Positions 1 through 49,131 of a stretch of 64,000 nucleotides of DNA are shown piece after piece. Origin of the DNA: Sulfolobaceae archaeon (lineage in GTDB: Archaea > Thermoproteota > Thermoprotei_A > Sulfolobales > Sulfolobaceae). How positions within the stretch are numbered: position 1 is the stretch's first letter; the number at the start of each line of letters is the position of its first letter. The translations under genes and the position numbers were made by a program. Under the pieces are notes generated by a model. The model did not search any database. It was not told where the DNA came from and was given only the letters and a program-made list of their open reading frames with translations. The DNA is taken from assembly GCA_038893355.1 (NCBI GenBank), contig JAWARQ010000002.1, positions 32,001-96,000 of the forward strand. Direction: 5' to 3'.

Positions 1-556
1 TCATATCCCTTATTGTTGGAGTCAGATCTCTCCTTACTCCGCCTGGTATTATGTAAGAATTTGTAACTCTAGCACCAGTAAGAGCTTGTAGTATCTCTAC
101 CCAAACCTCTCTATCACCAAATCCCCACATAAATCCTGTAGAATGACCTAAAAATATTGCTAAAATTCCGATTCCATATAAGTGGCTTGCTATTCTATTT
201 ATTTCTGCAGCAAAGCTCCTGAGATACTGAGCTCTAGGAGGAACATCAACTCCGAGTATCTTTTCTACGGCGAGTATATATCCCAAATTCATATGTATTG
301 AATCTAAGATAGCTGGCCTTTCGACAAGTGGAATTAGATGAATATAATTCCTATTCTCGCCTAATTTCTCAACAGCTCTATGTACATACCCAACATCTAA
401 CTCTACATCCTCTATAATATCTCCATTTAATTTTACAAATATCCTCATATGGCCAGATCCGGGATGTTGAGGACCTACGTTTAATTCCCCAGTTACTGGA
501 ATAAACTCAACTTGCATACCTAATCTTTCTAGAGCTTCATTCAGATTCTCTGTCAA
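1..556 (-). CDS. nuoD: NADH-quinone oxidoreductase subunit D (5' part, runs off window)
   Basis: Manual translation gives [15 protein letters not shown]...[12 protein letters not shown]; TTG start with GGAGGGG upstream, overlapping nuoC. Confidence 0.9.
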
Positions 557-1058
557 CAAACAACCCCTCCAACTTTATTTTATAACTCTTTCTCAAAGGA
601 TATACACCTTCAAAATCTTCTGGTAAAAATAATCTACTTAAATTAGGATGTCCTTGAAATATGACGCCTAACATCTCATATGTTTCTCTTTCTCCAGTCC
701 ATGCACTTTCCCACACAGAGTATAAAGAGGTAATTGTAGGATCTTTATAAGTTACATAAGTTCTTAAGGCTAAGATTACTTTTGCTAGCTCTATGTTTGA
801 ATAAGAGGATATATGATAGACTACCTCTATCCTTTCTTGATCTGGATAATCAGTTCCAGTAACTGACTTAACGTGATCAAATCCTATCTCTTTTAAGACC
901 TTTGCCACGCTTAAGATTTCCCCTTTATCAACTTCTATGCTTAGTCTATTCTCTGAATCTACCTTAATTTTCAAATTAGGAAGTTTAGATTTAATCAATT
1001 CAGCGACCTTATCTGCAATTTTTTGTTGGACTAGACTCATTACCTCCTCAACTCCCAA
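537..1058 (-). CDS. nuoC: NADH-quinone oxidoreductase subunit C
   Basis: [18 protein letters not shown]...YPLRK motif. Confidence 0.93.
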
Positions 1059-1429
1059 AGTTCTATCTTATCTGATTCCCTTATTCCAAAATAGATTACT
1101 GGATAAAGGAATAATAGAAAGCTACCTATTATTAATGCTAGATTTCTAAATAGTACATTACTCGCATAATAAGGAGCTTGCGCAGCTATAAGTAAAATTA
1201 CTATTATTGGTTCTAAACTCATATAAACTAATACATAACCATAATATTGTAACGGAAACCATAGTCTGCCTTCTCCGGTTGGAATGTTACCAGCTTCAAA
1301 CCTACTAACTTTAACTGGATTATACCTTGAAGGTGTAACTAACTGCAGGAATTTATATAGGGCATACCCTAACCCTAGAAATATTAAAATAGGTAATCCA
1401 AATGCTAATAATGCATTTATAATACTCAT
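1040..1429 (-). CDS. nuoA: NADH-quinone oxidoreductase subunit A
   Basis: Three TM segments, [11 protein letters not shown] loop, operon with nuoC/D. Confidence 0.88.
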
Positions 1430-1511: not shown

Positions 1512-2282
1512 TTACATATCAAGTATTTTTAATACTTGTCTAGAATTATTTATACATTTAACTATTCCCTCCTTGGAAACGCCTTCGATACATCTTTGTG
1601 AAATCCACTCCTTCTTATCTATTTCATCTAAAGTTATTGGATCTTCCCTTATGAAGTTTTCATGAACTATGCAATTAGGCCCAGCATACCTAAATAGCCT
1701 AGGATGAACTTTCTTAACTTCCTCTAGCATCTTCCATGCAACTAACCTTATCTCCCATTGTGCCCTTGAGCATAACCTTAATGCAAAGAAGTTGTATAAT
1801 TCTCTAGCATTCATTGTAACTACTATATTCGTGTTAACGCCATTAGGTAAGACATATCTAGCATCCTCCTCCGGCACACCGCTTTCTAAAAGCTTATAAT
1901 ATTTTTCATAAGCGTCCCTATAAGCTTCTTCTACAATCTCCTTAGCCCTCTTTCCTGCAGATGGTGGGATTATTGGTTTATAATATTCATCTATGGGCTT
2001 GGCAAACCTATGACTCATTTGAGTATAAGATGCTATCCTATGTCTAACTAATTGGTGTGAAGCTACTCTACTCAGACCCTCTATCGAGAAAGTATACACG
2101 GAATGCTCTAACACACTCCAATAACCGTGAAGTATAGCATCCCTAATCCAAACCTCTATCTCCTGCTCACTCATGTCCTTTTCATGATATTCCCAACCCT
2201 TCCTTGACCTACTCATTTTCGCAGCTATAGCTACAACTCTTTCACCATCTTTAGTAAAAGATACTAGTCTAACACTAATCAT
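1512..2282 (-). CDS. thyX: Flavin-dependent thymidylate synthase
   Basis: [21 protein letters not shown] ThyX motif; RAQWEIR. Confidence 0.95.
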
Positions 2283-2361
2283 TTATTTAACTCTTTGTGC
2301 AAAAACAAAAAAACACTTTTTACTAAATATTACTCTAATACTAATACACTAATTATTACTC

Positions 2362-2700
2362 TTAAAAACCTGCTAGTTTCTCCACTAATCGCGTTAAGAT
2401 TGCTGAATTCTTTTCTGCATCTTTTTCAGCCTGATCTAGTGTCTTCTTAACTTCTTCATCCTTAACTTGACTTAACTTCTGCTTATACTTTACAATCATT
2501 TTTAATTCCTCCTCAAGCATATCTATTACCGCCTCTAATGTCTGTTTGTCTTTAACCTTATCAGAAGCTAACGCCTTATTTTTAAAGCAGTTAAAGTGCA
2601 CAACTTCTTTATTTATTGTATACGTAAAGAGTTCATCCCAATATATTGTGTTTTTACAAATCGCACAACTCCATCTTGTAGCAGCTCTACTCGAGCTCAT
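2362..2700 (-). CDS. Conserved crenarchaeal Zn-binding protein (DUF2175-like)
   Basis: CxxC...HxxC N-terminus followed by coiled coil. Confidence 0.7.
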
Positions 2701-2748
2701 AACAATAAAGATAAATATTGTAGAAAAAAAGATTACGGTGTCATAAAA

Positions 2749-3903
2749 ATGCTTACAGAAAAACTGCTTTCGGATTCGAAATTCTACAATAAACCAATAA
2801 GTATCTTCTTTACATCTAGAAATTGTAGTATATGCGATAAACTCTATAACGAGATAACAAGTAAGTATATTTCTTCTAAATATTACTGGTTAAGGATAGA
2901 CAGTGAAGAATATTTACATTACTTCATTAGACTAACTAGAGGAGTAATACCATCAGTAGTAGTAATGAATGGAGATCTTAGAATTTTAGGTATAATAGAA
3001 TCTAATAACAGTGATTTTATTGAAAATGCATTAAAAAATATTTATGAAAATTTAGAAAATAAAAAACTTATAGCTTCTAACGTACCACACTTCGTACCAG
3101 AGCCGCAAGAATTTGACCCGTTTATCGTCCATGAAGTAGTTCTTAGAATTATTAATGGTGAAGTGGTAGACCATAGGGCACTAGAAGTAATAGAATTCTA
3201 TAAAAGAAATTATACTGAATTCTCAAATATTCAGAAATTTATTACTAATTATGATGTTATTACAAAATCTATCTTATATAAAGAAAAAATAGAAATAAAT
3301 AATTCTTATACTGCAGGAGTTCTCGTTGAAAATGGGATTGAAGATCCCAAGGTACTTCTTGAATATATTAATGAAGACGGTAGTGTGTATAGGAGTAAGA
3401 GGAAGGAAGTTAGCGGACTTTTAATAGATGAGAGTATTGCTGGTAATGCTCTTTTAAAGGCATATGAATTATACGGTGAGAAAGAATATTTAGAATATGC
3501 TAAAAAAATATATGAATATATAATAAAAAATAATGTACATGAAAAAGGATTTCTCGACGTACCTAAAAGAGACCCATTAAGTAATATCGAGTTCTTAGAA
3601 CCTTTAGCAAATGCAGAAGCTGGAATATTCTTCTCGAGGTACTATTTACTTACAAAAGATGAAAAAGCTAGAGAATACTCTGAAAAGGCTATTAGATGTG
3701 CATATGGCGGTTCTAAAAATACAAGAGTTTTAACTCGAGTAATTATTGCATACCTTAAATTAAAACATTCAATATTAACCAAAAATATGAAGATAACCGA
3801 TCCACGAATTGAATACTTGGAAAATCCATGTAAAGATGAGGAATTCTATTACAATAATAATTGCTATAAGTCAATAGACGAAATTACTATAGAACTACTC
3901 TAA
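2749..3903 (+). CDS. Thioredoxin-like domain plus alpha/alpha-barrel protein (DUF255/YyaL-like)
   Basis: CxxC (CSIC) N-terminal domain; start moved to ATG 2749 to avoid overlap with the divergent gene. Confidence 0.65.
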
Positions 3904-4599
3904 TCTTTTAAAAGTTCTAACGACGTACTTATTAATGTCCCTTGCAGTAGCTCCCTCACATATTGCCCTAAATACTTTATACTTATCTATAAATTCAAGC
4001 CTTTCTACTGCCTCAAATCCATGAGATTTTAGAGTTTTCGGCGCATACACACTTGATATTCCAACGAGTAATAAATGATCCGTCGAAGTATTATTTACTA
4101 TGTAGTCAATTGTAGAGTTAATTAGTGCAGAACCAAAAATTGCAGCTACATCACAACGCTCAGAAGTAAATGAATTAAAAGGTTTAACTTGGATTTTTCC
4201 CCTTTGAAGATACTGTGGATTATAAAAATCATAAATTATTATTGAAGAGAAATTTTGGACATTAACATTTGGGGAGAATCCAAATACGCATAACTTATTC
4301 CCTGAATATTGAGTAAGAATATCGCCTCTTTCGAATCTTTCAGATAACTTTATTGCATTAAGTATTGCCAAAGCGATACTCCTTGATAACGGTGTCTCAA
4401 TGTCTTTAACCACCTCATAAGGATTTGTAGAAATTATTTCACCACAATATTTTGAAGATCCTTCTGGAATTGTATGGGATACTCCTAAAGATCCATCATC
4501 TAACATTACTGCAGTATATGCAATACCAACACACATGTTTACTACACGCCTTTGCTTAAGTATGAAGGAAAGCTCCTCAATTATTTCATTTAAAATCAT
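3895..4599 (-). CDS. Rossmann-like DUF364 family putative heavy-metal-chelating protein
   Basis: VGIAYTAV...G.G..T, ALAILNA, GSALINSTID pattern. Confidence 0.7.
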   Translation of the reverse strand: MILNEIIEELSFILKQRRVVNMCVGIAYTAVMLDDGSLGVSHTIPEGSSKYCGEIISTNPYEVVKDIETPLSRSIALAILNAIKLSERFERGDILTQYSGNKLCVFGFSPNVNVQNFSSIIIYDFYNPQYLQRGKIQVKPFNSFTSERCDVAAIFGSALINSTIDYIVNNTSTDHLLLVGISSVYAPKTLKSHGFEAVERLEFIDKYKVFRAICEGATARDINKYVVRTFKRLE

Positions 4600-6503: not shown

Positions 6504-8309
6504 ATGAAAATGAAATTCTTATTAGGTTTCAATACACTTGATATTATACAAAGAATAATAATTGCTATCCTTTCATGGTTTGTTATAGCATTTATAAATA
6601 ACTTTATACCACAATTATCTAATTATATAATAATTTTACAAATAATTTCAGCTATTTCAGCATTCTTTTTCCCGTTTATAGTTAGCCCACTGCTAATTGT
6701 AACGTATACTTTCCTTAACATCCTTCAAGAATTTATAAAGAATATAACAATATATAATTTTATAATATTTTTATCGTATTTAATATTTTGGATAATAACA
6801 ATGTTTTATGGTTTAATAAAGTATAATGGTCTTAGACATGTTATAACTACTTATTCACTAGTAGCCTCACAATTAGGTTTTAGCTACTTACTATATAGCG
6901 GGTTAGGATTAAAGACAGATTATAAATTAGGAATTTTCGCCTCATTGCCGTTTTTACCAATATTTATATTATCTTACTTACCTAGTATTCCGCCAATTCG
7001 AAATATTATTGGGATAGTATTAATATTCCTGTCCAGTTATCTCTTCTCGATTAAGGGATACTATAGTATTATTGGTATAGTGCCCATTATCATAACTGTC
7101 TACTTAATAAATCAAAATTATCTATTTATTATACCACCTTTAGTAATTAATATAATATTAATAACCACAGACTTAATAAGCGATCTTAATGCTAAGAAGA
7201 GGAGTATAAATGAACAAAAAATCCATAATGAGAGAATAATAAACATGTTAATGGAAAATATGATGTTATTAGAAAGAGAATTAAAATTAATTTCGGATTT
7301 TAATTTAAAAGAATATCAAAATAAACTTTTAGAGCTCTTAAAACAGAATGCAACCTCAAATAAACTAGAAGAGCTTAAAGATATAGAATTTGAAATAAAT
7401 TCAATAAAGACTGAAATAAATTCAGTAATAAATAACTTTATCTTTGATTTAAATAATCAATATAAGAAAATATTTCTTGAACTACAGAACTTGGGATTTT
7501 CATCACAATTTGAACCGCTCTCAGAAGAAATTAAAATTGAAGACCCATTAACTTTTAAAATATTTTCAAATAATATACAAGTTATAAATACTATCTTTGT
7601 AAGGACAATATCAGAGATAGAGAAGTTTGCCAAAAAAATGGAGATGTTAATTGGAACAGAAATTAGAAAACCCACAATTAATAGGATTTCTGAATTAAAG
7701 GATTATATAGAATATTTAAAGCAACTTTTTTCAAAATCCGAAATTGAAAATTGTATGAATAAAGCCGAATTTATTATTCAAACACTAATTAAGACTAATC
7801 CGAGTTTATCTAAAGAAATTTCATACCTCTTAATACAATACAATACTGAAAGAGTACCAGTAAAGAAATATGAAATCGTATACGAACTATTAGAAAAAGT
7901 TAGAAGATATATAGAAGAGGAGCTAAAGAACGCAGTTATTGATCTTGAAGAGTTGATACATAATTACAAATTGATAAGTTTACAAGAAAACTTAAAACTA
8001 TTACAGCCAGCTATTTCAGAAGGTTTAAAAGGTAGTCATTGTAATGTAATGTCCTCATTAATCTCTTTAATTGATATTATTAACTTTACTCTTGAAGTTA
8101 GAAGGGACAAGGAAAGTATAGTTAATATAATTTCCACTTTATCAAATCTTGATAATATTCTAGAGAATTTAATAAGGGCAGGGAGTTGTATAAATGTGAA
8201 AGAATTTGGACTTTCACAGAAATATGACTGGGTAGTTAAAGATTACTTAAAGTCTAAAGGATACAATTTAACTACAGTAGGTGAAGAAATTTGCCCTTCA
8301 TCATCTTAG
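6504..8309 (+). CDS. Hypothetical protein, N-terminal multi-TM region and long helical/coiled-coil C-terminus
   Basis: 601-aa ORF; hydrophobic first ~220 aa. Confidence 0.7.
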
Positions 8310-8528
8310 TCTACGAATAATTATTTCAGCATGATCCCCTACAACGTCTGCCTTAAATAAGTATCTAGGTGTATTTCTTAATAACTGATGAGTACATATT
8401 ACCCTATCTTGATCAGCTATTACCTTTATTGATTCACCTGCTTTCATATTAACTAAATATCTTGAAAGTTCTAGGATATATTCTTCACATGTTTTTCCTC
8501 TTAAGTCTAATTGCGCAATAACTGCCAT
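8301..8528 (-). CDS. TusA/SirA-like sulfur carrier
   Basis: LDLRGKTC motif, 75 aa. Confidence 0.8.
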
Positions 8529-8558
8529 AGTAAAAACTATTGAAATATATTTTAAAAA

Positions 8559-9350
8559 TTATAATGTAAGCATCCTCTTACTTTCTCTTTCTTTAATTTT
8601 GTCTTGCTCTTGAATAACTTTAAACCATAACTCATCATAGTTCTTAAATAAATAATCATAAACTTCTGCTATTCTGGATAACACGTTTACATTTGATAAT
8701 GAATGGATTCTTAACCCGACTCTGCCTACTGCACCACCCCTAATCATTAACCAATGCGCAAAAGTCTCTAATGGATATTTTCTTTTTACCTCTTCAGCAT
8801 CTATCTTACGATTATATAACCAGTACAATTCTCTAACAAAGTTAGTTGCAATTCTTCTTATCATTACATCTTTCCACTTCTCTAGATACTTCTCTCCTTC
8901 TTTAAGCATAATTGTCCTTAAATAATTATATAACTCTTCACTATTGCTAGAGTTTACTAGACCAGTTATGGCCATTATGAATTCCTTCTGAGCAAAAAGT
9001 GCATCAAAATCTCTATTGACATAAATCCATGCAGTAACAGCAAAAGAATTAGTTATACCCTCCATTAGTTTTTCGACTAGTTTCTCTTTATCCAAATTAC
9101 TCTTAACTGGAACGGTATCAAATTCTAATATCCTTTCTAATTCATCATAATCTACTACTCCTGCAAAATATAATTTCCCATCCACAAATATTGATGGTGT
9201 TGATAATACGCCCCTTTCTAATGCTAAAAAAGGGTATAACTCTGTGTCTATCACTTGAACTTTCCCTAGCAAATTTTTTTGTTCTAACCAGTCCAGTAAT
9301 ATATTACAATCTACACAATTCCTATGAATGAATATCTCTACCTTTTTCAT
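8559..9350 (-). CDS. Thioredoxin-fold protein
   Basis: CVDC and GVLSTPSIFVDG. Confidence 0.8.
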   Translation of the reverse strand: MKKVEIFIHRNCVDCNILLDWLEQKNLLGKVQVIDTELYPFLALERGVLSTPSIFVDGKLYFAGVVDYDELERILEFDTVPVKSNLDKEKLVEKLMEGITNSFAVTAWIYVNRDFDALFAQKEFIMAITGLVNSSNSEELYNYLRTIMLKEGEKYLEKWKDVMIRRIATNFVRELYWLYNRKIDAEEVKRKYPLETFAHWLMIRGGAVGRVGLRIHSLSNVNVLSRIAEVYDYLFKNYDELWFKVIQEQDKIKERESKRMLTL

Positions 9351-27497: not shown

Positions 27498-27588
<91 letters not shown>

Positions 27589-28050
27589 CTACTCTAAAGC
27601 TTCTCTCCTTAATAAGTCTTTTACCATAACATACGCATGTTTACCTCTACCATAGTAATTTTTATGAAATTTTACTATAATATATCCCATTTTTCTATAA
27701 AAATTAATAGCAGGAGTATTATTTATTGCGACTTCGAGATAAGAATATCTACAATTAAAATCCTTAAATCTCCTTTCCAGTTCAGATACTAACATACTCC
27801 CTATTCCCTTATTTCTCCATTCTCTTCTTACTGCAATAGATACGATATGACCCCTTATATTGAATTGTATAACACCAATAATGTAGCCCAAAACTAGATC
27901 TTGTTCTTTTGCTACTAAATACAAATTTCCTGAAATGTATAAATATGCTCTTAATAAGGAAAACGGATAGGGATTTTCAAATGATTCTCGTTCTATATCA
28001 TATATCTGGAATAAATCCTCTTCAGTAGCTCTACTTATAATTACTGACAT
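27589..28050 (-). CDS. RimI/Ard1-family GNAT acetyltransferase
   Basis: GHIVSIAV, RNKGIG, LEV..N..AINFY; start moved to ATG 28050. Confidence 0.88.
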   Translation of the reverse strand: MSVIISRATEEDLFQIYDIERESFENPYPFSLLRAYLYISGNLYLVAKEQDLVLGYIIGVIQFNIRGHIVSIAVRREWRNKGIGSMLVSELERRFKDFNCRYSYLEVAINNTPAINFYRKMGYIIVKFHKNYYGRGKHAYVMVKDLLRREALE

Positions 28051-33949: not shown

Positions 33950-34978
33950 GTGTTAAGGCTTCAAAATAGGGATTTTATAAGGATTGGGTATGATGTAGAA
34001 TTACCGTTAATAGGTAGTATTGCATTTGGAATTATAGATAGGGGAACAAATATACTACAAGTTAGAGCTAATAGTTATTGTCCTTTAAATTGTATATTCT
34101 GCTCTACAGACGCAGGGCCTAATTCTAGATGGAGAAGATGTGAGTACAGAGTAGATAAAGATCTTTTAGTATCATGGGTTAAGGAAGTTGTTAAGTTTAA
34201 GAAGAAAGATGTAGAGATACATTTAGATAGTGTAGGAGAACCATTAATGTATGATAAATTACCTGACCTAATTCAAGAACTAAAGTCTATACCAAATGTG
34301 AAGGTAGTAAGTATTCAAACTCATGGTTCCTTACTTAGTTATAAGTATGCCGAACGTTTAACTTCAGCAGGATTAGATAGGATAAATCTTAGCATCGATA
34401 CCTTAGATCAAGAAAAGGCGAAGTACTTACAAGGAGCAGAATGGTATAACGTTAAGAGAATAATGGAAATAACTGAATGGATCTTAAGAAATACTAATAC
34501 TGATATACTACTAGCACCAGTATTATTGCATGGAATTAATGATACTGATGTGGAGGATGTAATAAAGTGGGGTAAAAGTATAGGAGTAGGTAAGAGATTT
34601 CCCGGATTTGGTATTCAAGTATTTATGAAACATAAGCATGGCAGAATTCCTAAAGATGTAAAAATCATTAATATGAAAAAATTCGAAAAAATTCTTTTAT
34701 TATGGGAGAAGAAATATAATGTAAAATTAAGATTAAGTGAGGAGGATTTTGGTATCAAAAAGCTTCCTATGATACCCACAATTTTTAAGGAAGGAGAAAA
34801 GGTGAAAGTTAAGATAGTTGCACCAGGTTGGTTAAAAAATGAGTGGTTAGCGGTCCCAGTTGGTAAAGAAGAGAGTAGAGTCATAACCGTTATTGGCAAA
34901 GAGTTAGATATAGAATCTAAAATTAATGTTAGAATAATTAAAAATAAACATAATATATATTTAGCCCGACCCTTATAA
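33950..34978 (+). CDS. Archaeal radical SAM protein with C-terminal TRAM-like domain
   Basis: FGIIDRGTN, CPLNCIFC, GEP. Confidence 0.85.
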   Translation: MLRLQNRDFIRIGYDVELPLIGSIAFGIIDRGTNILQVRANSYCPLNCIFCSTDAGPNSRWRRCEYRVDKDLLVSWVKEVVKFKKKDVEIHLDSVGEPLMYDKLPDLIQELKSIPNVKVVSIQTHGSLLSYKYAERLTSAGLDRINLSIDTLDQEKAKYLQGAEWYNVKRIMEITEWILRNTNTDILLAPVLLHGINDTDVEDVIKWGKSIGVGKRFPGFGIQVFMKHKHGRIPKDVKIINMKKFEKILLLWEKKYNVKLRLSEEDFGIKKLPMIPTIFKEGEKVKVKIVAPGWLKNEWLAVPVGKEESRVITVIGKELDIESKINVRIIKNKHNIYLARPL

Positions 34979-38645: not shown

Positions 38646-38719
38646 CAGTCTGGCGTTCAGTAATAAACCTTTTGGTCAAACCTCAAGCATAATCTCAACT
38701 AAGATTGCCACGTGGGCCC
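38646..38719 (+). repeat. Left 74-bp inverted repeat
   Basis: CAGTCTGGCGTTCAGTAATAAAC...CCACGTGGGCCC. Confidence 0.85.
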
Positions 38720-38727
38720 TATATAGG

Positions 38728-38858
38728 AGATAGTGTCACCACTAAGCTACAAAAATCCCTTTTACCCTATAACATTTCATGAAAAATTACATTTTACACC
38801 TCTACTCTATAAAGGGAATTTTCATACAATAATTTATAGCTTAATAGTGACACTATCT
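38728..38858. mobile_element. MITE-like element, 131 bp
   Basis: 26-bp terminal inverted repeats match 23/26 (AGATAGTGTCAC...GTGACACTATCT); no ORF. Confidence 0.7.
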
Positions 38859-38990
38859 GATTTTTTCTAATTAATTATAAATTATAATTAATATGTATAT
38901 ACTAATAAAATTTTAATTTAATATAAATTAATATGTATCTCTTCCCATTATCATTGCTCTTATGAAAATTCTTATACATCTATAATTCAC

Positions 38991-40133
38991 TTAACTCTTC
39001 TTTTCCTTTAAATATCCAAATAAGTAAGTTATGCCTGATATAAGGACAAAGATAGAGTCAAAATAAAATGGTAATGTATAGCTAGCATCATATAAATATC
39101 CAGAAATAGCATAGCCTATAATGCTACCCAAGTCTTGAGAAGCAGAAATAATACCAACTGCAGAACCCTTAATACTCACTCTTCTACCAATATACGCGGG
39201 CCAAAGTGTGTACAGTGCATTAATAAGAATTGCATTAATGAAAGCGATTAATATAATAACAAATATATTTTTAGAAAGATAAAATAATATTAATATTGAA
39301 GATATTATCAAATTGGCACCTATAATTAAAAATTCATGTAAATTTTTACCATAATTTCCCCATAACTGTGATGCTAAAATATTTCCGATACCAATCATTG
39401 TATAAGTTATACCCACATAACTTGCATTAAGATCTAAAATATCTACTACGAATAATGGAAAAACTATTTGAAATATGCCAAGTCCAATATATTCAAAAAA
39501 GTTACCTAATAAAACTATTAAAATTGATATATTTTTTAAATTTTGAAAATTTATATTATTATTCATCATGTTAATATTATAAACTTTTATATAATTTTTT
39601 AAAGAAAATAAAATTATTAAAGAAAATAATAAAATAATATTTACAAATAGAAAGAAAATTTTATGATTGAAGGTATATAATAGGGATCCAATTAAAGGTC
39701 CTATAGTAGTTGAGATGTAAGAAAGACTATTATATAATCCAAAAGCTTTCCTATATTCATCTTCTTTACTTATAGTCATGATATAAGCTATTAATGAAGG
39801 TCTAAGGAACGAAGTACCAATACCTTCTATCAATCTAACGAGAAATAGATACTGCCAAATCTCTATGAAGTCATAGATGATAAATGCAATTAAATAAAGG
39901 ATAAGTCCTAATAATAATATATTATACTTATTCTTAATATCGAATAGAAAGCCTGTTATCGGTTGAATAATTATCCTAACTATTACATAATTAACTACTA
40001 AAAGTCCTATAGTATAAGTAGGTGCCCCCAGATTTTGGGCGTATAGTGGGAAAATGATAAGAAATGAGAAAAACACAGTATTCACAAATATACTTACAAT
40101 AGAGAGCATTAATAGTACATGAAGTTTATACAA
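38991..40133 (-). CDS. MFS transporter (probable exporter)
   Basis: About 12 TM helices; G.LFD motif-A-like segment, RLIEGIG, IGPLIG. Confidence 0.88.
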   Translation of the reverse strand: MYKLHVLLMLSIVSIFVNTVFFSFLIIFPLYAQNLGAPTYTIGLLVVNYVIVRIIIQPITGFLFDIKNKYNILLLGLILYLIAFIIYDFIEIWQYLFLVRLIEGIGTSFLRPSLIAYIMTISKEDEYRKAFGLYNSLSYISTTIGPLIGSLLYTFNHKIFFLFVNIILLFSLIILFSLKNYIKVYNINMMNNNINFQNLKNISILIVLLGNFFEYIGLGIFQIVFPLFVVDILDLNASYVGITYTMIGIGNILASQLWGNYGKNLHEFLIIGANLIISSILILFYLSKNIFVIILIAFINAILINALYTLWPAYIGRRVSIKGSAVGIISASQDLGSIIGYAISGYLYDASYTLPFYFDSIFVLISGITYLFGYLKEKKS

Positions 40134-40136
40134 TTT

Positions 40137-41201
40137 CTAATCCCTTAGTGTTTTTGGACAAAATGGGTCTGGAGCGTAAATATCATTTAAGAAAAGGTAT
40201 GCAAATACCCTTGAACCACCTCTGCATTTCTCTACGAATTCACAACTTATACAAGGTTCTTTGAACCAATCATTCTGTCTAAACATATTAAGAGCAACAG
40301 AATTTTTCCATATTTTATCTATAGAATTTTCCCTTACATTATCAAATTTAATAACCCCTTCATAAAGTAATGTGTCTGCAGACTCCACTAAAGGTAAAAC
40401 GTAACCTTCAGGATTTATTATCATACCATAATATCCCCATATGTTAGGCTTAACTTTAAAGTAATCTTTAGCACGATTAATAATTTTAAAACTAATATGC
40501 CTATTATATTCTGCTTCTAAATCAGAAACAATTTCATTAATCTGTATTATTTCTTTAAATTTTGGAATAATCTTAGGATTCTTATAAGCGAAGCCTGCCG
40601 GCAAAACTGGCTGAATAATTAAAGCGTCTAGCTTCCTATATTTTGCATCTAGTTCAATTATTAATTTTAAAATTTTCTTTAGTTTCTCATATAAATTAGC
40701 ATAAATTGACAAATGAAATATTGCAGCCTTATGTTCTCCTTCTTTTTCTTTAAATAATATAATTTTTTTGTAAAAATATTCTAAATTTCTGAATATATTA
40801 TAATCATCACTATTGGCATATCTATATACATGTAGGCTTAATTGCATTAAATCTAGGTAATCTCTAATAATTTTAATGCCATTTTCATTTAATAATAATC
40901 CATTAGAGGAAAGAGCAGTAATCGTATTAAACGATTTAGCATATTTAATTAATTCAATTACACCCTCATATTTTAGAGGCTCTCCTCCAGTAAATATCAA
41001 AATTTTAGTACCTAGCTCAACCACTTGCTTAATTATAGATTTCCATTCCTCTATACTTAACTTTTTTCTATCCATATGAGTTGGGTTAAAACAATATGGG
41101 CATCTGAGATTACAGTCATAAGTTAATTGTAATTCTACAATATGTGGTATCTTTGGATCTAAAGATAATAATTTACTTTGATTTTGTAAAAAATCAAGCA
41201 T
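40137..41201 (-). CDS. Radical SAM/SPASM enzyme, PqqE-like, putative peptide maturase
   Basis: ELQLTYDCNLRCPYCFNP, FTGGEP, INPEGYVLP, CxxCxxxxxC...PDPFC. Confidence 0.88.
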   Translation of the reverse strand: MLDFLQNQSKLLSLDPKIPHIVELQLTYDCNLRCPYCFNPTHMDRKKLSIEEWKSIIKQVVELGTKILIFTGGEPLKYEGVIELIKYAKSFNTITALSSNGLLLNENGIKIIRDYLDLMQLSLHVYRYANSDDYNIFRNLEYFYKKIILFKEKEGEHKAAIFHLSIYANLYEKLKKILKLIIELDAKYRKLDALIIQPVLPAGFAYKNPKIIPKFKEIIQINEIVSDLEAEYNRHISFKIINRAKDYFKVKPNIWGYYGMIINPEGYVLPLVESADTLLYEGVIKFDNVRENSIDKIWKNSVALNMFRQNDWFKEPCISCEFVEKCRGGSRVFAYLFLNDIYAPDPFCPKTLRD

Positions 41202-41213
41202 GTTGTAAACCTT

Positions 41214-41366
41214 TTACAATTTTTCCAACGATATCGCTATAACTCCTATATATAATGAAGAACTGATAGGATTGTAATCTACTATATCTTTGTTTCTACT
41301 TAATTCTTTTTTAATCTCATAGACTTTATTTATAGTTATGAATTTAGTAGATAGGTTTCCTTGCAT
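41214..41366 (-). CDS. 50-aa putative RiPP precursor peptide
   Basis: ATG 41366 preceded by GGGGGA and an A-rich/TTTAAG promoter-like element; stop 12 nt before the rSAM start. Confidence 0.6.
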   Translation of the reverse strand: MQGNLSTKFITINKVYEIKKELSRNKDIVDYNPISSSLYIGVIAISLEKL

Positions 41367-41390
41367 TTTTATCCCCCAGATTATCTTTAA

Positions 41391-41411
41391 CTTAAACGGT
41401 TTTTTTTTTTT
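41391..41411 (-). promoter_or_regulatory. Putative BRE/TATA of the peptide operon
   Basis: A12-CCG-TTTAAG ending 24 nt upstream of ATG 41366. Confidence 0.45.
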
Positions 41412-41530
41412 AACTCTCAATAATTCTAAAAAGTTATCATAAATAACAGTTATTATGTCAATAAAATTTAAACACTTGTCATTAATACTAATATCATATA
41501 TAAACAATTTTTAATAAACCTTAAGAATTA

Positions 41531-41895
41531 CATTCCCGTAGACCCCAAATTCATCACCTCGAAAATAATTCTAGAGAGTTAAAAATTGGATAGAATAATT
41601 TAACTGAATATTCTTGAATCGTAGTAATATTACCTTACAAAACAAAATCAAGATAATTAGTAGTAAGCGGAAGTCCTCTTTGCTTGTTGTTCCCCTTGAA
41701 GAGTAGGTAAAGCGTGTAAATTAACATTGCCAAAGCGAAGATGAACAAGCGAACTAACCAACTCCTTGATGAGGTAAAGATGAGAAATGATTTGATTAGC
41801 TTGTAAGAAGTCTCTATTGGTGTCCTAACCTTGTCATACCAATTTATTACAATACTCCTATGCACGTCTAGGTTCGTCCCCTTGGCCAAGTACTC
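41531..41895 (-). pseudogene. ISH3-family transposase 3' remnant with frameshifts
   Basis: YDKVRTPIETSYKLIKSFLIFTSSR..RLFIF; frameshifted continuations KEDFRLLL and NSLELFSR*; 5' part absent. Confidence 0.75.
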
Positions 41896-42000: not shown

Positions 42001-42074
42001 AGACCCACGTGGTAATGTTAGCTTACACTATGCTTGAAATATGACCGAAAGATTTATTACTAAACGCCAGGCTG
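42001..42074 (-). repeat. Right 74-bp inverted repeat
   Basis: AGACCCACGTGG...GATTTATTACTAAACGCCAGGCTG. Confidence 0.85.
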
Positions 42075-42258
42075 CATAGAAATATCCAAACAACTTAATT
42101 GCTAATTTTTCGAAATTCTTTAGTATTAGTATATAGATAACAAGGGCTAATTAAAATTATAAATTATATTATATAATTAAAAAGATAAAAAATTATTTTA
42201 TTATTTTTAATTAAATTATGAATACATCTAAAAATTGAAATTTAATTTTAAAACTTTA

Positions 42259-42344
42259 CGCCGGGGGCGGGATTTGAACCCGCGCGGGGGAAACCCCCAG
42301 CGGCTTAGCAGGCCGCCGCCCTGGCCAGACTAGGCGACCCCGGC
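42259..42344 (-). tRNA. tRNA-Ser(GCT)
   Basis: GCCGGGG acceptor stem, GCGGC-CTGCTAA-GCCGC anticodon arm, long variable arm, GGTTCAAATCC. Confidence 0.94.
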
Positions 42345-42400
42345 AATATATCATATTTATTTACTCCTTAAAAACTCTTATTCACTTAGAATTGATTTCT

Positions 42401-47139: not shown

Positions 47140-47786
47140 TTTTCTTGTAAAATTTTCTTACCATGATACATTACATTATTTGGTAAGAATGAATTTAATC
47201 GAAATACTCTATTTTCTATAGTTAAAAAACCAAATTTTTCCATGATCTTTCTTAACTCCCATGGAAAATAAAACCTATAAAATCTATATAGTTTTCTGCC
47301 ATTAAAATTACTAATTAACCATACATTCCTCCTAAATAGAAATTTAAACTGAACAAGCCATACTGTTACTATTATCTCTCCTCCTACTTTTAAAACCCTA
47401 TACATTTCTGATATAGCAAGTGAAGGGTCTGGAAGATGATGAAGCGTAGCTAGACAAAGTATTGTAGAAATACTATTATCTCTAAATGGAAGAAATTCCA
47501 TATCTGCCTGAACAAGATTTTCACATCCCCTCTTTTTAGATTCTATTAATTGTTTTTCCGCAATGTCTAAACCTATTACATACCCCTTTAATTTACTACA
47601 ATTATACCCTGCACCGCATCCAATATCTACTACTGGGTCTTTTTTAACTAAATCTAAAAATTTAGAAGGTTTTCTTCTATGAATAATGAATTCGTAAGCT
47701 TCTTTAACCCTCTCTTTAATTAAGTTCTTTTGCGAGATAGGGTCCAAAGTCACGATAGCCCCTCTTTCTATAGTATTCTTTAACAC
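47136..47786 (-). CDS. Class I SAM methyltransferase (Trm9-like candidate)
   Basis: DIGCGAG, LPFRD, LATLHHL, RVLKVGG..TVW; start uncertain, overlaps elp3. Confidence 0.8.
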
Positions 47787-49131
47787 CTACCCCAGAAAGT
47801 ACCAGTATTCTTTTTGCATCAAATTCTTCCCTCGATATCCTTTCAGCCTCTCTAAGTAACAAAGTACCGTAACCCTTATGTTGGTAAGCCATTTCATCCC
47901 ACTCGCCTACAGGAACTTCTATTCCATAAATATGGAGCTCTCTTATTATCGTAGTTTTCTCGTCTATCTCATTTCTATGAGCCTTTTTAGACGGTACTCT
48001 TAATCTTAAGTAGCCCACTAAAATATCTTGTTCGTCTTCTAGAGATAGGAAAATTTCTATACCTTCACTTGCTTCGTATATTTCCTTCTTTAAACTAATA
48101 TTTTTAGGAGTAATATTTCTATGTAACCACATATAACCTACTTCCCTATATCTAATCTCATTAATTTTTATGCCCTTTTGTAGTGCCCTCTGCTCTACTA
48201 GTTCCCTTAAATTCCCCTTAATATTCCCAGCTAATATCACATCAGCTGGAATATCCCTCTGAATCCTCATTACCCTAACCCATTTTGGTATGTATCTATA
48301 CATTTCAGAAATTAATTCAACTAAAGTCTCTGTATCATATGGCTTATAAAGTCCTTTTTTCCAAAGATATACTAAAGGGGCAGTCTCAACTACTAGGGTA
48401 GGATAAATCTTAAGCATGTCTGGTCTAAAATCTGGATTTCTAAAAATCTCCTTAAATGCTTCTAAGTCTTTGTCTGGATCAGAGCCTGGTAATCCTAGCA
48501 TTACGTGATAAACTACCTTAAATCCCGAATCCTTTAAAATTCTAGTAGAATCTATAGAATCCTTTACAGTATGACCTCTATTCGTTATTTTTAATATTTC
48601 ATCATATATCGTCTGTACTCCTAATTCAACCTTAGTAACTCCCAAATTTAACATAATATCAGCCTGAGGTTCTTTAGCCCAATCTGGTTTAGTCTCTACG
48701 GTTATTCCGACTGCTCTATGAACTGCTTTTTCATTTCTCGTTTTAGCATCTTCAAGATAAACGAATTTTGGCTTTTCTTTACTCGGATATCTATTCATGG
48801 CTTCTAATGCCATGGTAACGAACCATTCTTGATAATCTAAAGGCATCGCAGTAAAAGTACCACCCATTATAATTAATTCAATTTTACTAGGATTATGGCC
48901 TAGATAGTAGTACTGAGAAAGCCTAGAATATACTTGATAATAAGGATCAAAATTATTCTCAATTGCTCTCATTAATGCAGGTTCTCTGCCATAATAACTT
49001 TGGGGCGTATTATATTCTACTCCACCAGGGCAAAAAATACATTTACCATGAGGACATCTACTAGGACTTGTCATAATTGCTACTATACTTACTCCAGCCA
49101 TCATCCTTGTTAACTTTCTTATAACCTTCAT
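47716..49131 (-). CDS. elp3: Elp3 tRNA U34 carboxymethyltransferase (rSAM + KAT)
   Basis: [35 protein letters not shown]. Confidence 0.95.

Follow-up and report, generated by a model that had tools for sequence, protein, structure and literature searches.

A putative three-gene cassette for peptide modification and export in an AT-rich island of a Sulfolobaceae archaeon

Within a 64,000-nt stretch of a Sulfolobaceae archaeon genome (assembly GCA_038893355.1, contig JAWARQ010000002.1, positions 32,001 to 96,000; the whole stretch is referred to as the window, and positions below are counted within it), three genes follow one another closely along the minus strand in the order small open reading frame (ORF), radical S-adenosylmethionine (rSAM) enzyme and major facilitator superfamily (MFS) transporter. 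The small ORF, a candidate precursor peptide gene (41214..41366), has an ATG start and encodes 50 aa. It is separated by 12 nt (41202-41213) from the gene of a 354-aa rSAM enzyme with a SPASM-type C-terminal domain (40137..41201), which is separated by 3 nt (40134-40136) from the gene of a 12-transmembrane-type putative exporter of 380 aa with a TTG start (38991..40133). The 3-nt gap results from taking the transporter from this TTG, since the public gene call starts 8 codons further in and gives 372 aa. A first-pass annotation, made from the DNA letters and their ORFs, had reported three co-oriented genes with these two gaps, and the minus-strand ORF list agrees. Its upper limit of 41411 has to be moved, as there is no start codon there; comparison with relatives favors the ATG at 41366, from which public gene calls give the identical 50-aa product, and the frame stays free of stops as far upstream as a TTG at 41507 (97 aa). 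We consider it fairly probable that the island carries a modification and export cassette of the type known for peptides that are made by ribosomes and modified post-translationally (RiPPs). Judged from the sequences, its layout is common to a few related archaea and its product is likely to be a secreted modified peptide.

Pfam confirmed the annotated combination of rSAM, SPASM and MFS proteins. The enzyme matches PF04055 with 64.2 bits (cut-off 29.5) and, over residues 256-320, PF13186 with 29.2 bits (cut-off 21.5). Its best NCBIfam match is PqqE (TIGR02109), with 168.6 bits under half of the cut-off of 381.35, and the mycofactocin maturase is also among the matches (63 bits). PqqE is the best sequence match in the PDB as well (6c8v, E 1.9e-24), and Foldseek places it nearest to an AlphaFold model of the enzyme (E 1e-16; mean predicted local distance difference test score 77.6), followed at ranks 2-10 by SuiB, SkfB and CteB; these four all mature peptides. 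The lower fold matches DesII, BlsE and MoaA act on small molecules.

The GGE motif and the CX3CX2C motif (C30/C34/C37) are intact, and the latter is invariant across the family described below, as are the cysteines of auxiliary cluster II (AuxII; C317, C320, C326, C348). These are the only cluster cysteines in the SPASM-type domain, which does not fit the seven-Cys pattern of two-cluster enzymes. When aligned according to the Fe-S ligand assignment in the accessible text of a study on PqqE (PMC5715301), the AuxI ligands C248, C268, C323 and C325 of PqqE correspond to a gap, Leu, Ser and Val in the window enzyme. Asp319, which the same text describes as an AuxII ligand conserved in every PqqE homologue, corresponds to Cys326, and the PqqE-like proteins P0003, P0004 and P0018 retain the Asp. 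Because Cys326 replaces Asp319, AuxII would be ligated by four cysteines, as in anSME. The AuxI-less pattern is common to all family members and to four unnamed proteins scoring 170-200 bits (P0129, P0134, P0135, P0149), which argues that it is old and maintained rather than recent damage. Model distances given for PqqE are about 16 Å from the radical SAM cluster to AuxI and about 28 Å to AuxII (PMC5715301, accessible text). In known SPASM enzymes, AuxI is the cluster closest to the active site; lacking it, the window enzyme would either resolve its radical intermediate differently or perform different chemistry.

By its sequence, the enzyme is thus PqqE-like and is not PqqE. The first-pass annotation had likewise denied that the genes form a pyrroloquinoline quinone (PQQ) operon, and the rest of the genome is in line with this. 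The PqqB and PqqC models have no match in the 84%-complete genome (the PqqC control matched no control genome either), and PF05402, the PqqD-like RiPP precursor recognition element (RRE), is found neither in the enzyme nor in the window. The PF05402 matches in the genome are restricted to contigs C4 and C15, and no peptidase is present among the 12 flanking ORFs scanned, so the annotated absence of an RRE and a protease also stands. Because CX3CX2C begins at residue 30, the enzyme has no room for an N-terminal RRE. The match on C4 (C4:169123-169308; L027 1411-1695) is a stand-alone PqqD-like protein of 94 aa (49 bits) with no adjoining rSAM gene, a possible trans-acting partner for RRE-less maturases.

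The transporter matches PF07690 with 138.8 bits (cut-off 33.4) in two stretches that cover both six-helix halves. Among NCBIfam models it fits those of drug and metallophore efflux families best, each with a score under the cut-off. A homologue search found one protein with 73% identity, on a 1.5-kb contig too short to hold neighbors. An MFS protein is also the only transporter of the clusters for microcin C (MccC) and bottromycin (BotT), and the sequences give no evidence of kinship with these past the superfamily.

The enzyme belongs to a very small family. In a single-protein search the closest matches in 40 relatives were 31% identical, and among 5.8 billion proteins one reached 38% (P0002, on a Logan contig of 16 kb), the others being at most 30% identical and mostly named PqqE. 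When 351 genomes of the class were searched with a profile of five family members at a threshold of at least 240 bits, the family was detected in 9 (G000, G017, G018, G024, G053, G055, G060, G094 and G288). Four clusters scored above 260 bits among 1.84 billion representatives at 50% identity, with the next score at 219; the largest comprises AAK40864.1 ("PqqE-1") of Saccharolobus solfataricus along with proteins from S. caldissimus, S. shibatae and Acidianus hospitalis. Metagenome contigs, when scanned, yielded for the most part bacterial PqqE (27-31% identity), together with the Saccharolobus-type copies L056 and L059 and one genuine pqqBCDE operon (L060, GC 61.5%), and a scan of genome contigs returned only a truncated copy (L120) and unrelated rSAM genes. 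From these comparisons, the window copy is the most divergent member of its family. As a separate observation, the ORFs around the broken cassette of G288 (L035), a genome placed in another family of the order, translate identically to those of G055 (L021), which suggests recent transfer or a binning artefact.

In all seven loci readable on both sides of the enzyme gene (L002, L003, L004, L021, L022, L036, L056), an ORF of 39-47 aa lies directly upstream of the rSAM gene and an MFS gene directly downstream, the latter Pfam-checked in L002 and L036. The relatives' enzymes are 27-31% identical to that of the window and their MFS proteins 23%. Peptides of the Saccharolobus type are Tyr-rich with the consensus ...EY(I/V)IKKFE.EI....RKY.MYYT...P.YYM.S(W). 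The L002 and L036 peptides have PPSYYM in common; the latter, from G094, is otherwise different, and the G094 enzyme is 27% identical to the window's. The ratio of non-synonymous to synonymous polymorphism (pN/pS) of the relatives' small ORFs lies between 0.00 and 0.64 in 10 of 10 pairs, and the small ORFs of L021 and L056 differ by five synonymous and no non-synonymous substitutions. Such substitution patterns mark the relatives' peptides as real genes under purifying selection. The first-pass annotation had proposed to look for homologous enzymes beside similar short ORFs. The family withstands this check, since a conserved short peptide gene does adjoin the homologous enzymes, and an MFS gene as well. 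The window ORF itself has no detectable similarity to those peptides.

An 18-nt upstream motif, TATTGAGAGTTAAAAAAA, is a promoter or operator candidate (41405..41422, minus strand) and occurs as a single exact copy in the 1.4-Mb genome. In relatives it is conserved and equally placed with respect to the small ORF, exactly in L004 and with one or two mismatches in L002, L021, L022, L035 and L120. The motif is noncoding, as the TTG frame across it meets stops in L002 and L004. A Shine-Dalgarno (SD)-like site, GGGGGAT (41371..41377, minus strand), is located 4 nt ahead of the ATG at 41366. In a DNA alignment, this site and the ATG sit at an L004-like distance from the motif, and the relatives have GGGGGTG or GGGTGA in the same place. 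An inverted near-copy of part of the motif (41407-41425) is present at 41567-41585 (19 nt, 89% complementary), inside the multi-copy IS end described below.

The tie between the window ORF and the family is positional, consisting of its location, the shared promoter-like motif, and the SD-like site with its ATG only. The ORF has no Pfam match, and its product contains no Cys, no Trp and no Glu-X3-Tyr. When the 433-nt spacer was shuffled, an ATG ORF of at least 50 aa arose in 482 of 20000 cases and an open frame of at least 97 aa in 3 of 20000. Aligned by MAFFT, the window peptide and those of relatives looked suggestively alike (18-27% identity; S-K-E-Y-I-I against S-T-K-F-I-T, and two aligned Tyr), but this alignment was discarded, since neither a profile test nor BLASTP backs it. 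Complex prediction for the enzyme and the 50-mer gave 0.30, 0.49 and 0.06 in three runs without controls (median 0.30, the mark being 0.32), which counts neither way. Precursor cores of RiPPs commonly diverge past recognition while their enzymes remain 30% identical. On this ground, we infer that the window ORF is a probable precursor, which would be translated and serve as the substrate of the enzyme.

Several results weigh against a peptide-modifying cassette of this kind. When all 21785 stop-to-stop ORFs of the genome were searched with a hidden Markov model (HMM) of four relatives' peptides, the window ORF was not among the 301 matches at E ≤ 100, and BLASTP of the window peptide against the L002, L036 and L204 peptides gave zero alignments. 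A word-sharing search of proteins of 27-88 aa in the set of 5.8 billion returned the 50-mer itself as its sole match, and a search of the Atlas returned no usable match. The neighborhood counts cover the seven loci named above, whose enzymes are more distant from the window's than P0002, the closest one. Decayed family copies occur, as that of G055 has two stops, that of G288 is truncated, and those of G060 and the second of G053 are fragments. With AuxI missing, the electron path of known crosslinking SPASM enzymes is absent, so the chemistry may be different or impaired. The island itself holds no RRE, protease or immunity gene. Finally, the motif shows no genome-wide enrichment: taken as a 16-mer with at most one mismatch in 47 genomes, it matched 30 times and its reversed control 28 times, and just 6 of its 30 sites have an rSAM/SPASM gene within 1.5 kb. 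The association of motif and rSAM genes is best treated as a lead toward a shared promoter or operator, not as an established regulon.

Some of these results would be expected if the enzyme and the transporter were a functional pair and the small ORF a chance ORF or an unrelated micro-protein, with the substrate encoded elsewhere or being a small molecule moved by the MFS protein. The window ORF lacks similarity to the family peptides and has no homologue anywhere in the searches, 2.4% of the shuffled spacers still yield an ATG ORF of at least 50 aa, and DesII, BlsE and MoaA show that some fold neighbors handle small molecules. Nevertheless, we hold this to be unlikely, as the exact motif, the SD-like site and the ATG are located where the relatives' peptide genes begin, a 97-codon open frame is very rare by chance (3/20000), each of the seven complete loci inspected has a peptide gene at the equivalent position, and divergence of the core is common in RiPP families. 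It is very unlikely that the cassette is an inactive relic, the cargo of a decaying island rich in mobile elements with an enzyme crippled by loss of AuxI, even though it has a low GC content, debris of insertion sequences (IS) and miniature inverted-repeat transposable elements (MITEs) on its flanks, and pseudogene or fragment copies elsewhere. All three window ORFs are intact, the AuxII cysteines and the rSAM motif are invariant, and the peptides of relatives are under purifying selection.

Production of a redox cofactor from the peptide, in the manner of PqqE/PqqA or MftC/MftA and in place of a secreted bioactive peptide, is hardly credible. It would account for PqqE being the best family and structure match, for the mycofactocin maturase match and for the Tyr-rich cores in relatives. 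Against it stand the PqqE score at under half of the cut-off, the missing AuxI ligands and Asp319, the failure to find PqqB or PqqC in the genome and PqqD in the window, and a peptide that has no Glu-X3-Tyr. A dedicated, conserved MFS protein suits export better, and the patchy, decaying and IS-flanked distribution is unlike that of a cofactor pathway.

With the peptide modification and export cassette as the preferred explanation, a promoter that includes the 18-nt motif would drive a single transcript over the three genes, the first of which would be translated into the 50-aa precursor. Lacking both an N-terminal RRE and an adjacent PqqD, the maturase would recognize its substrate directly or via a PqqD-like protein encoded elsewhere. 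The [4Fe-4S] cluster bound by CX3CX2C would then cleave SAM reductively and initiate hydrogen abstraction from the peptide. Going by PqqE and SuiB, the enzyme would most likely form a crosslink (carbon-carbon or carbon-heteroatom) at a tyrosine in the C-terminal half, for which Y31 and Y39 are candidates. In this enzyme, AuxI would have been lost and AuxII kept in a fully Cys-ligated form. The product, probably trimmed by a protease from outside the island, would leave via the MFS pump. The site and type of the modification, the direction of transport and any biological activity are inferred.

Possible, though doubtful, is a wider proposal in which the family constitutes a class of ribosomal peptide natural products restricted to Sulfolobales, the first to be defined in Thermoproteota, with an RRE-less maturase derived from PqqE that has shed AuxI and reconstructed AuxII from four cysteines, an undescribed tyrosine crosslink, MFS export, and TATTGAGAGTTAAAAAAA as the operator of a common regulator that would switch several cassettes together.

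Among characterized systems, PqqE/PqqA resembles the cassette most, with PqqE the best match by HMM, PDB sequence and fold. The two share an rSAM core with a SPASM-type C-terminal domain, an enzyme without an N-terminal RRE, and an upstream short peptide gene with tyrosines in the C-terminal half of its product. The window enzyme differs in lacking all AuxI ligands, in having Cys in place of Asp319 and in scoring below the PqqE cut-off. Unlike in a PQQ operon, the MFS gene stands where pqqB-D would and no PqqD adjoins, and unlike PqqA, the window peptide has no Glu-X3-Tyr. SuiB (which forms the Lys-Trp crosslink of streptide), CteB and SkfB (thioether) are the next-best folds, and their operons likewise combine a precursor, an rSAM enzyme and a transporter. 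These enzymes begin with an RRE that spans about 100 residues, and their one or two auxiliary clusters include the AuxI position, whereas the window enzyme has only AuxII ligands and its CX3CX2C from residue 30, and the window peptide is free of Cys and Trp. The PqqE-1 of S. solfataricus (AAK40864.1) and its Saccharolobus and Acidianus orthologues belong to the same AuxI-less family, with the same peptide-enzyme-MFS layout and upstream motif. In comparison with them, the window enzyme is 30-31% and its MFS protein 23% identical, and the peptides are unrelated in sequence, being Tyr/Trp-rich there (...KYMMYYT..PPSYYMVSW) and reading ...DYNPISSSLYIGVIAISLEKL here.

Databases name proteins of the PqqE-1 type only "radical SAM protein" or "PqqE", and a literature search found no paper on them or on this rSAM family. 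The accessible text of PMC10105419 names only sulfolobicins (protein toxins) and halocins as archaeocins, and that of PMC13635244 describes ranthipeptides in archaea as reported only recently. RiPP clusters of the rSAM type have been counted by genome mining across archaea, the TACK group included, according to the available part of 10.1101/2024.10.07.616454, and for that reason the cassette is not new in kind. The novelty that the first-pass annotation had claimed therefore narrows to this family, which combines an AuxI-less enzyme, Tyr-rich peptides and an MFS partner and is undescribed in the searchable literature; genome-mining supplements may list the Saccharolobus loci generically. The annotation's further suggestions of new chemistry, an antimicrobial or signal role and peptide export stay at the level of proposals.

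Searchable literature yielded no characterized ribosomal peptide natural product from Sulfolobales. As the family has members in genetically tractable Saccharolobus strains, knock-outs and heterologous tests are feasible at low pH and 75-80 °C. Having AuxII but no AuxI, such a SPASM enzyme is a natural experiment on the role of each auxiliary cluster, and a thermo- and acid-stable crosslinked peptide would be of interest to peptide engineers. From the window copy, one would learn how much drift in precursor and enzyme is compatible with a persisting layout and promoter element.

The motif was also seen ahead of three other, unrelated clusters of a peptide and an rSAM gene, on contig C15 of the same genome, metagenome contig L056 and genome G002. 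The C15 cluster lies outside the window (about 7003-8595; L028 345-1937, minus strand) and consists of the motif with two mismatches, a 60-aa ORF, a PqqD-like protein of 87 aa (PF05402, 41.9 bits) and a 374-aa rSAM/SPASM protein with the full seven-Cys pattern. On L056, two divergent peptide and rSAM cassettes lie back to back (34-1378, minus strand; 1978-4483, plus strand), each preceded by one motif copy, exact at 1361 and with two mismatches at 1978. One cassette is of the family type with an MFS gene; the other, behind the exact motif, comprises a 62-aa ORF and a 370-aa rSAM/SPASM gene. In G002 (L204 1501-2739), the motif with 1 mismatch of 16 is followed by a Cys-containing peptide of 31 aa and an rSAM gene of 362 aa. 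The peptides of G002 (L204) and G007 (L018, about 1340-2547) are homologous members of a further Sulfolobaceae peptide family (31-35 aa), share the leader MSELQ..A.L.HI.SI and a Cys-containing C-terminus, and are encoded directly upstream of seven-Cys rSAM/SPASM enzymes of 358-362 aa.

The annotated AT-rich, repeat-bounded island was borne out. The cassette has a GC content of 26.6% against a genome mean of 32.4% (standard deviation 3.1%), which is within the bottom 1.4% of values for 2732 segments of the same length. It is enclosed by 71-nt inverted arms that are 82% complementary, a left arm at 38646-38716 and a right arm at 42004..42074. The right arm is a dispersed repeat module with copies on contigs C9, C1 and C2. 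The left flank (38646..38861) comprises the left arm and a MITE-like element whose terminal inverted repeats are 26 nt long (38728-38753 / 38833-38858), and the sequence 38640-38870 matches 20 places within the genome.

The right flank holds IS-derived modules that have copies on contigs C1, C7, C9 and C17. An IS remnant (41536..41889, minus strand), with copies on C7, C1 and C17, contains the C-terminus of an ISH3-family transposase (41635-41889) and a multi-copy IS end (41536-41622). The transposase fragment corresponds to the last 62 residues (NF033541, 48.8 bits, positions 237-298 of the 298 in the profile). The IS end is shared by many metagenome contigs that differ in their flanks; contigs of four runs stop or diverge there, and read depth over it is several-fold above that of the cassette. 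The cassette itself is identical in contigs of four DNA runs wherever covered, with no natural variants.

The surroundings are of housekeeping character, with genes for a class II tRNA synthetase, an AlaX-like protein, a KH protein, a Rio kinase, aIF1A, tRNA-Ser and aconitase. The Rio-aIF1A pair is retained in 15 of 15 relatives, with the KH protein adjoining in 14, and the cassette was found at this site in none of the 15. In seven of them a thiolase-like ORF occupies the place of the island, and Pfam confirmed thiolase in both that were scanned. The cassette occupies a lineage-specific synteny break in an AT-rich island amid IS/MITE debris, and this small island is mobile-looking. A tRNA-Ser(GCT) gene borders it (42258..42345, minus strand). 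The idea that this tRNA was the ancestral neighbor of aIF1A and the target of integration is unsupported, as 0 of 15 relatives have a tRNA-Ser within 1.5 kb of aIF1A.

An Rfam scan of the region found only the neighboring tRNA. Two further radical SAM genes are present in the window, one of 342 aa (33950-34978, plus strand) and an Elp3-like one of 471 aa with Radical_SAM_C (47716-49131, minus strand); both are of housekeeping type and unrelated to the cassette. At 27499-27589, ARAGORN predicted a tRNA with an undetermined anticodon, which may be an intron-containing archaeal tRNA.

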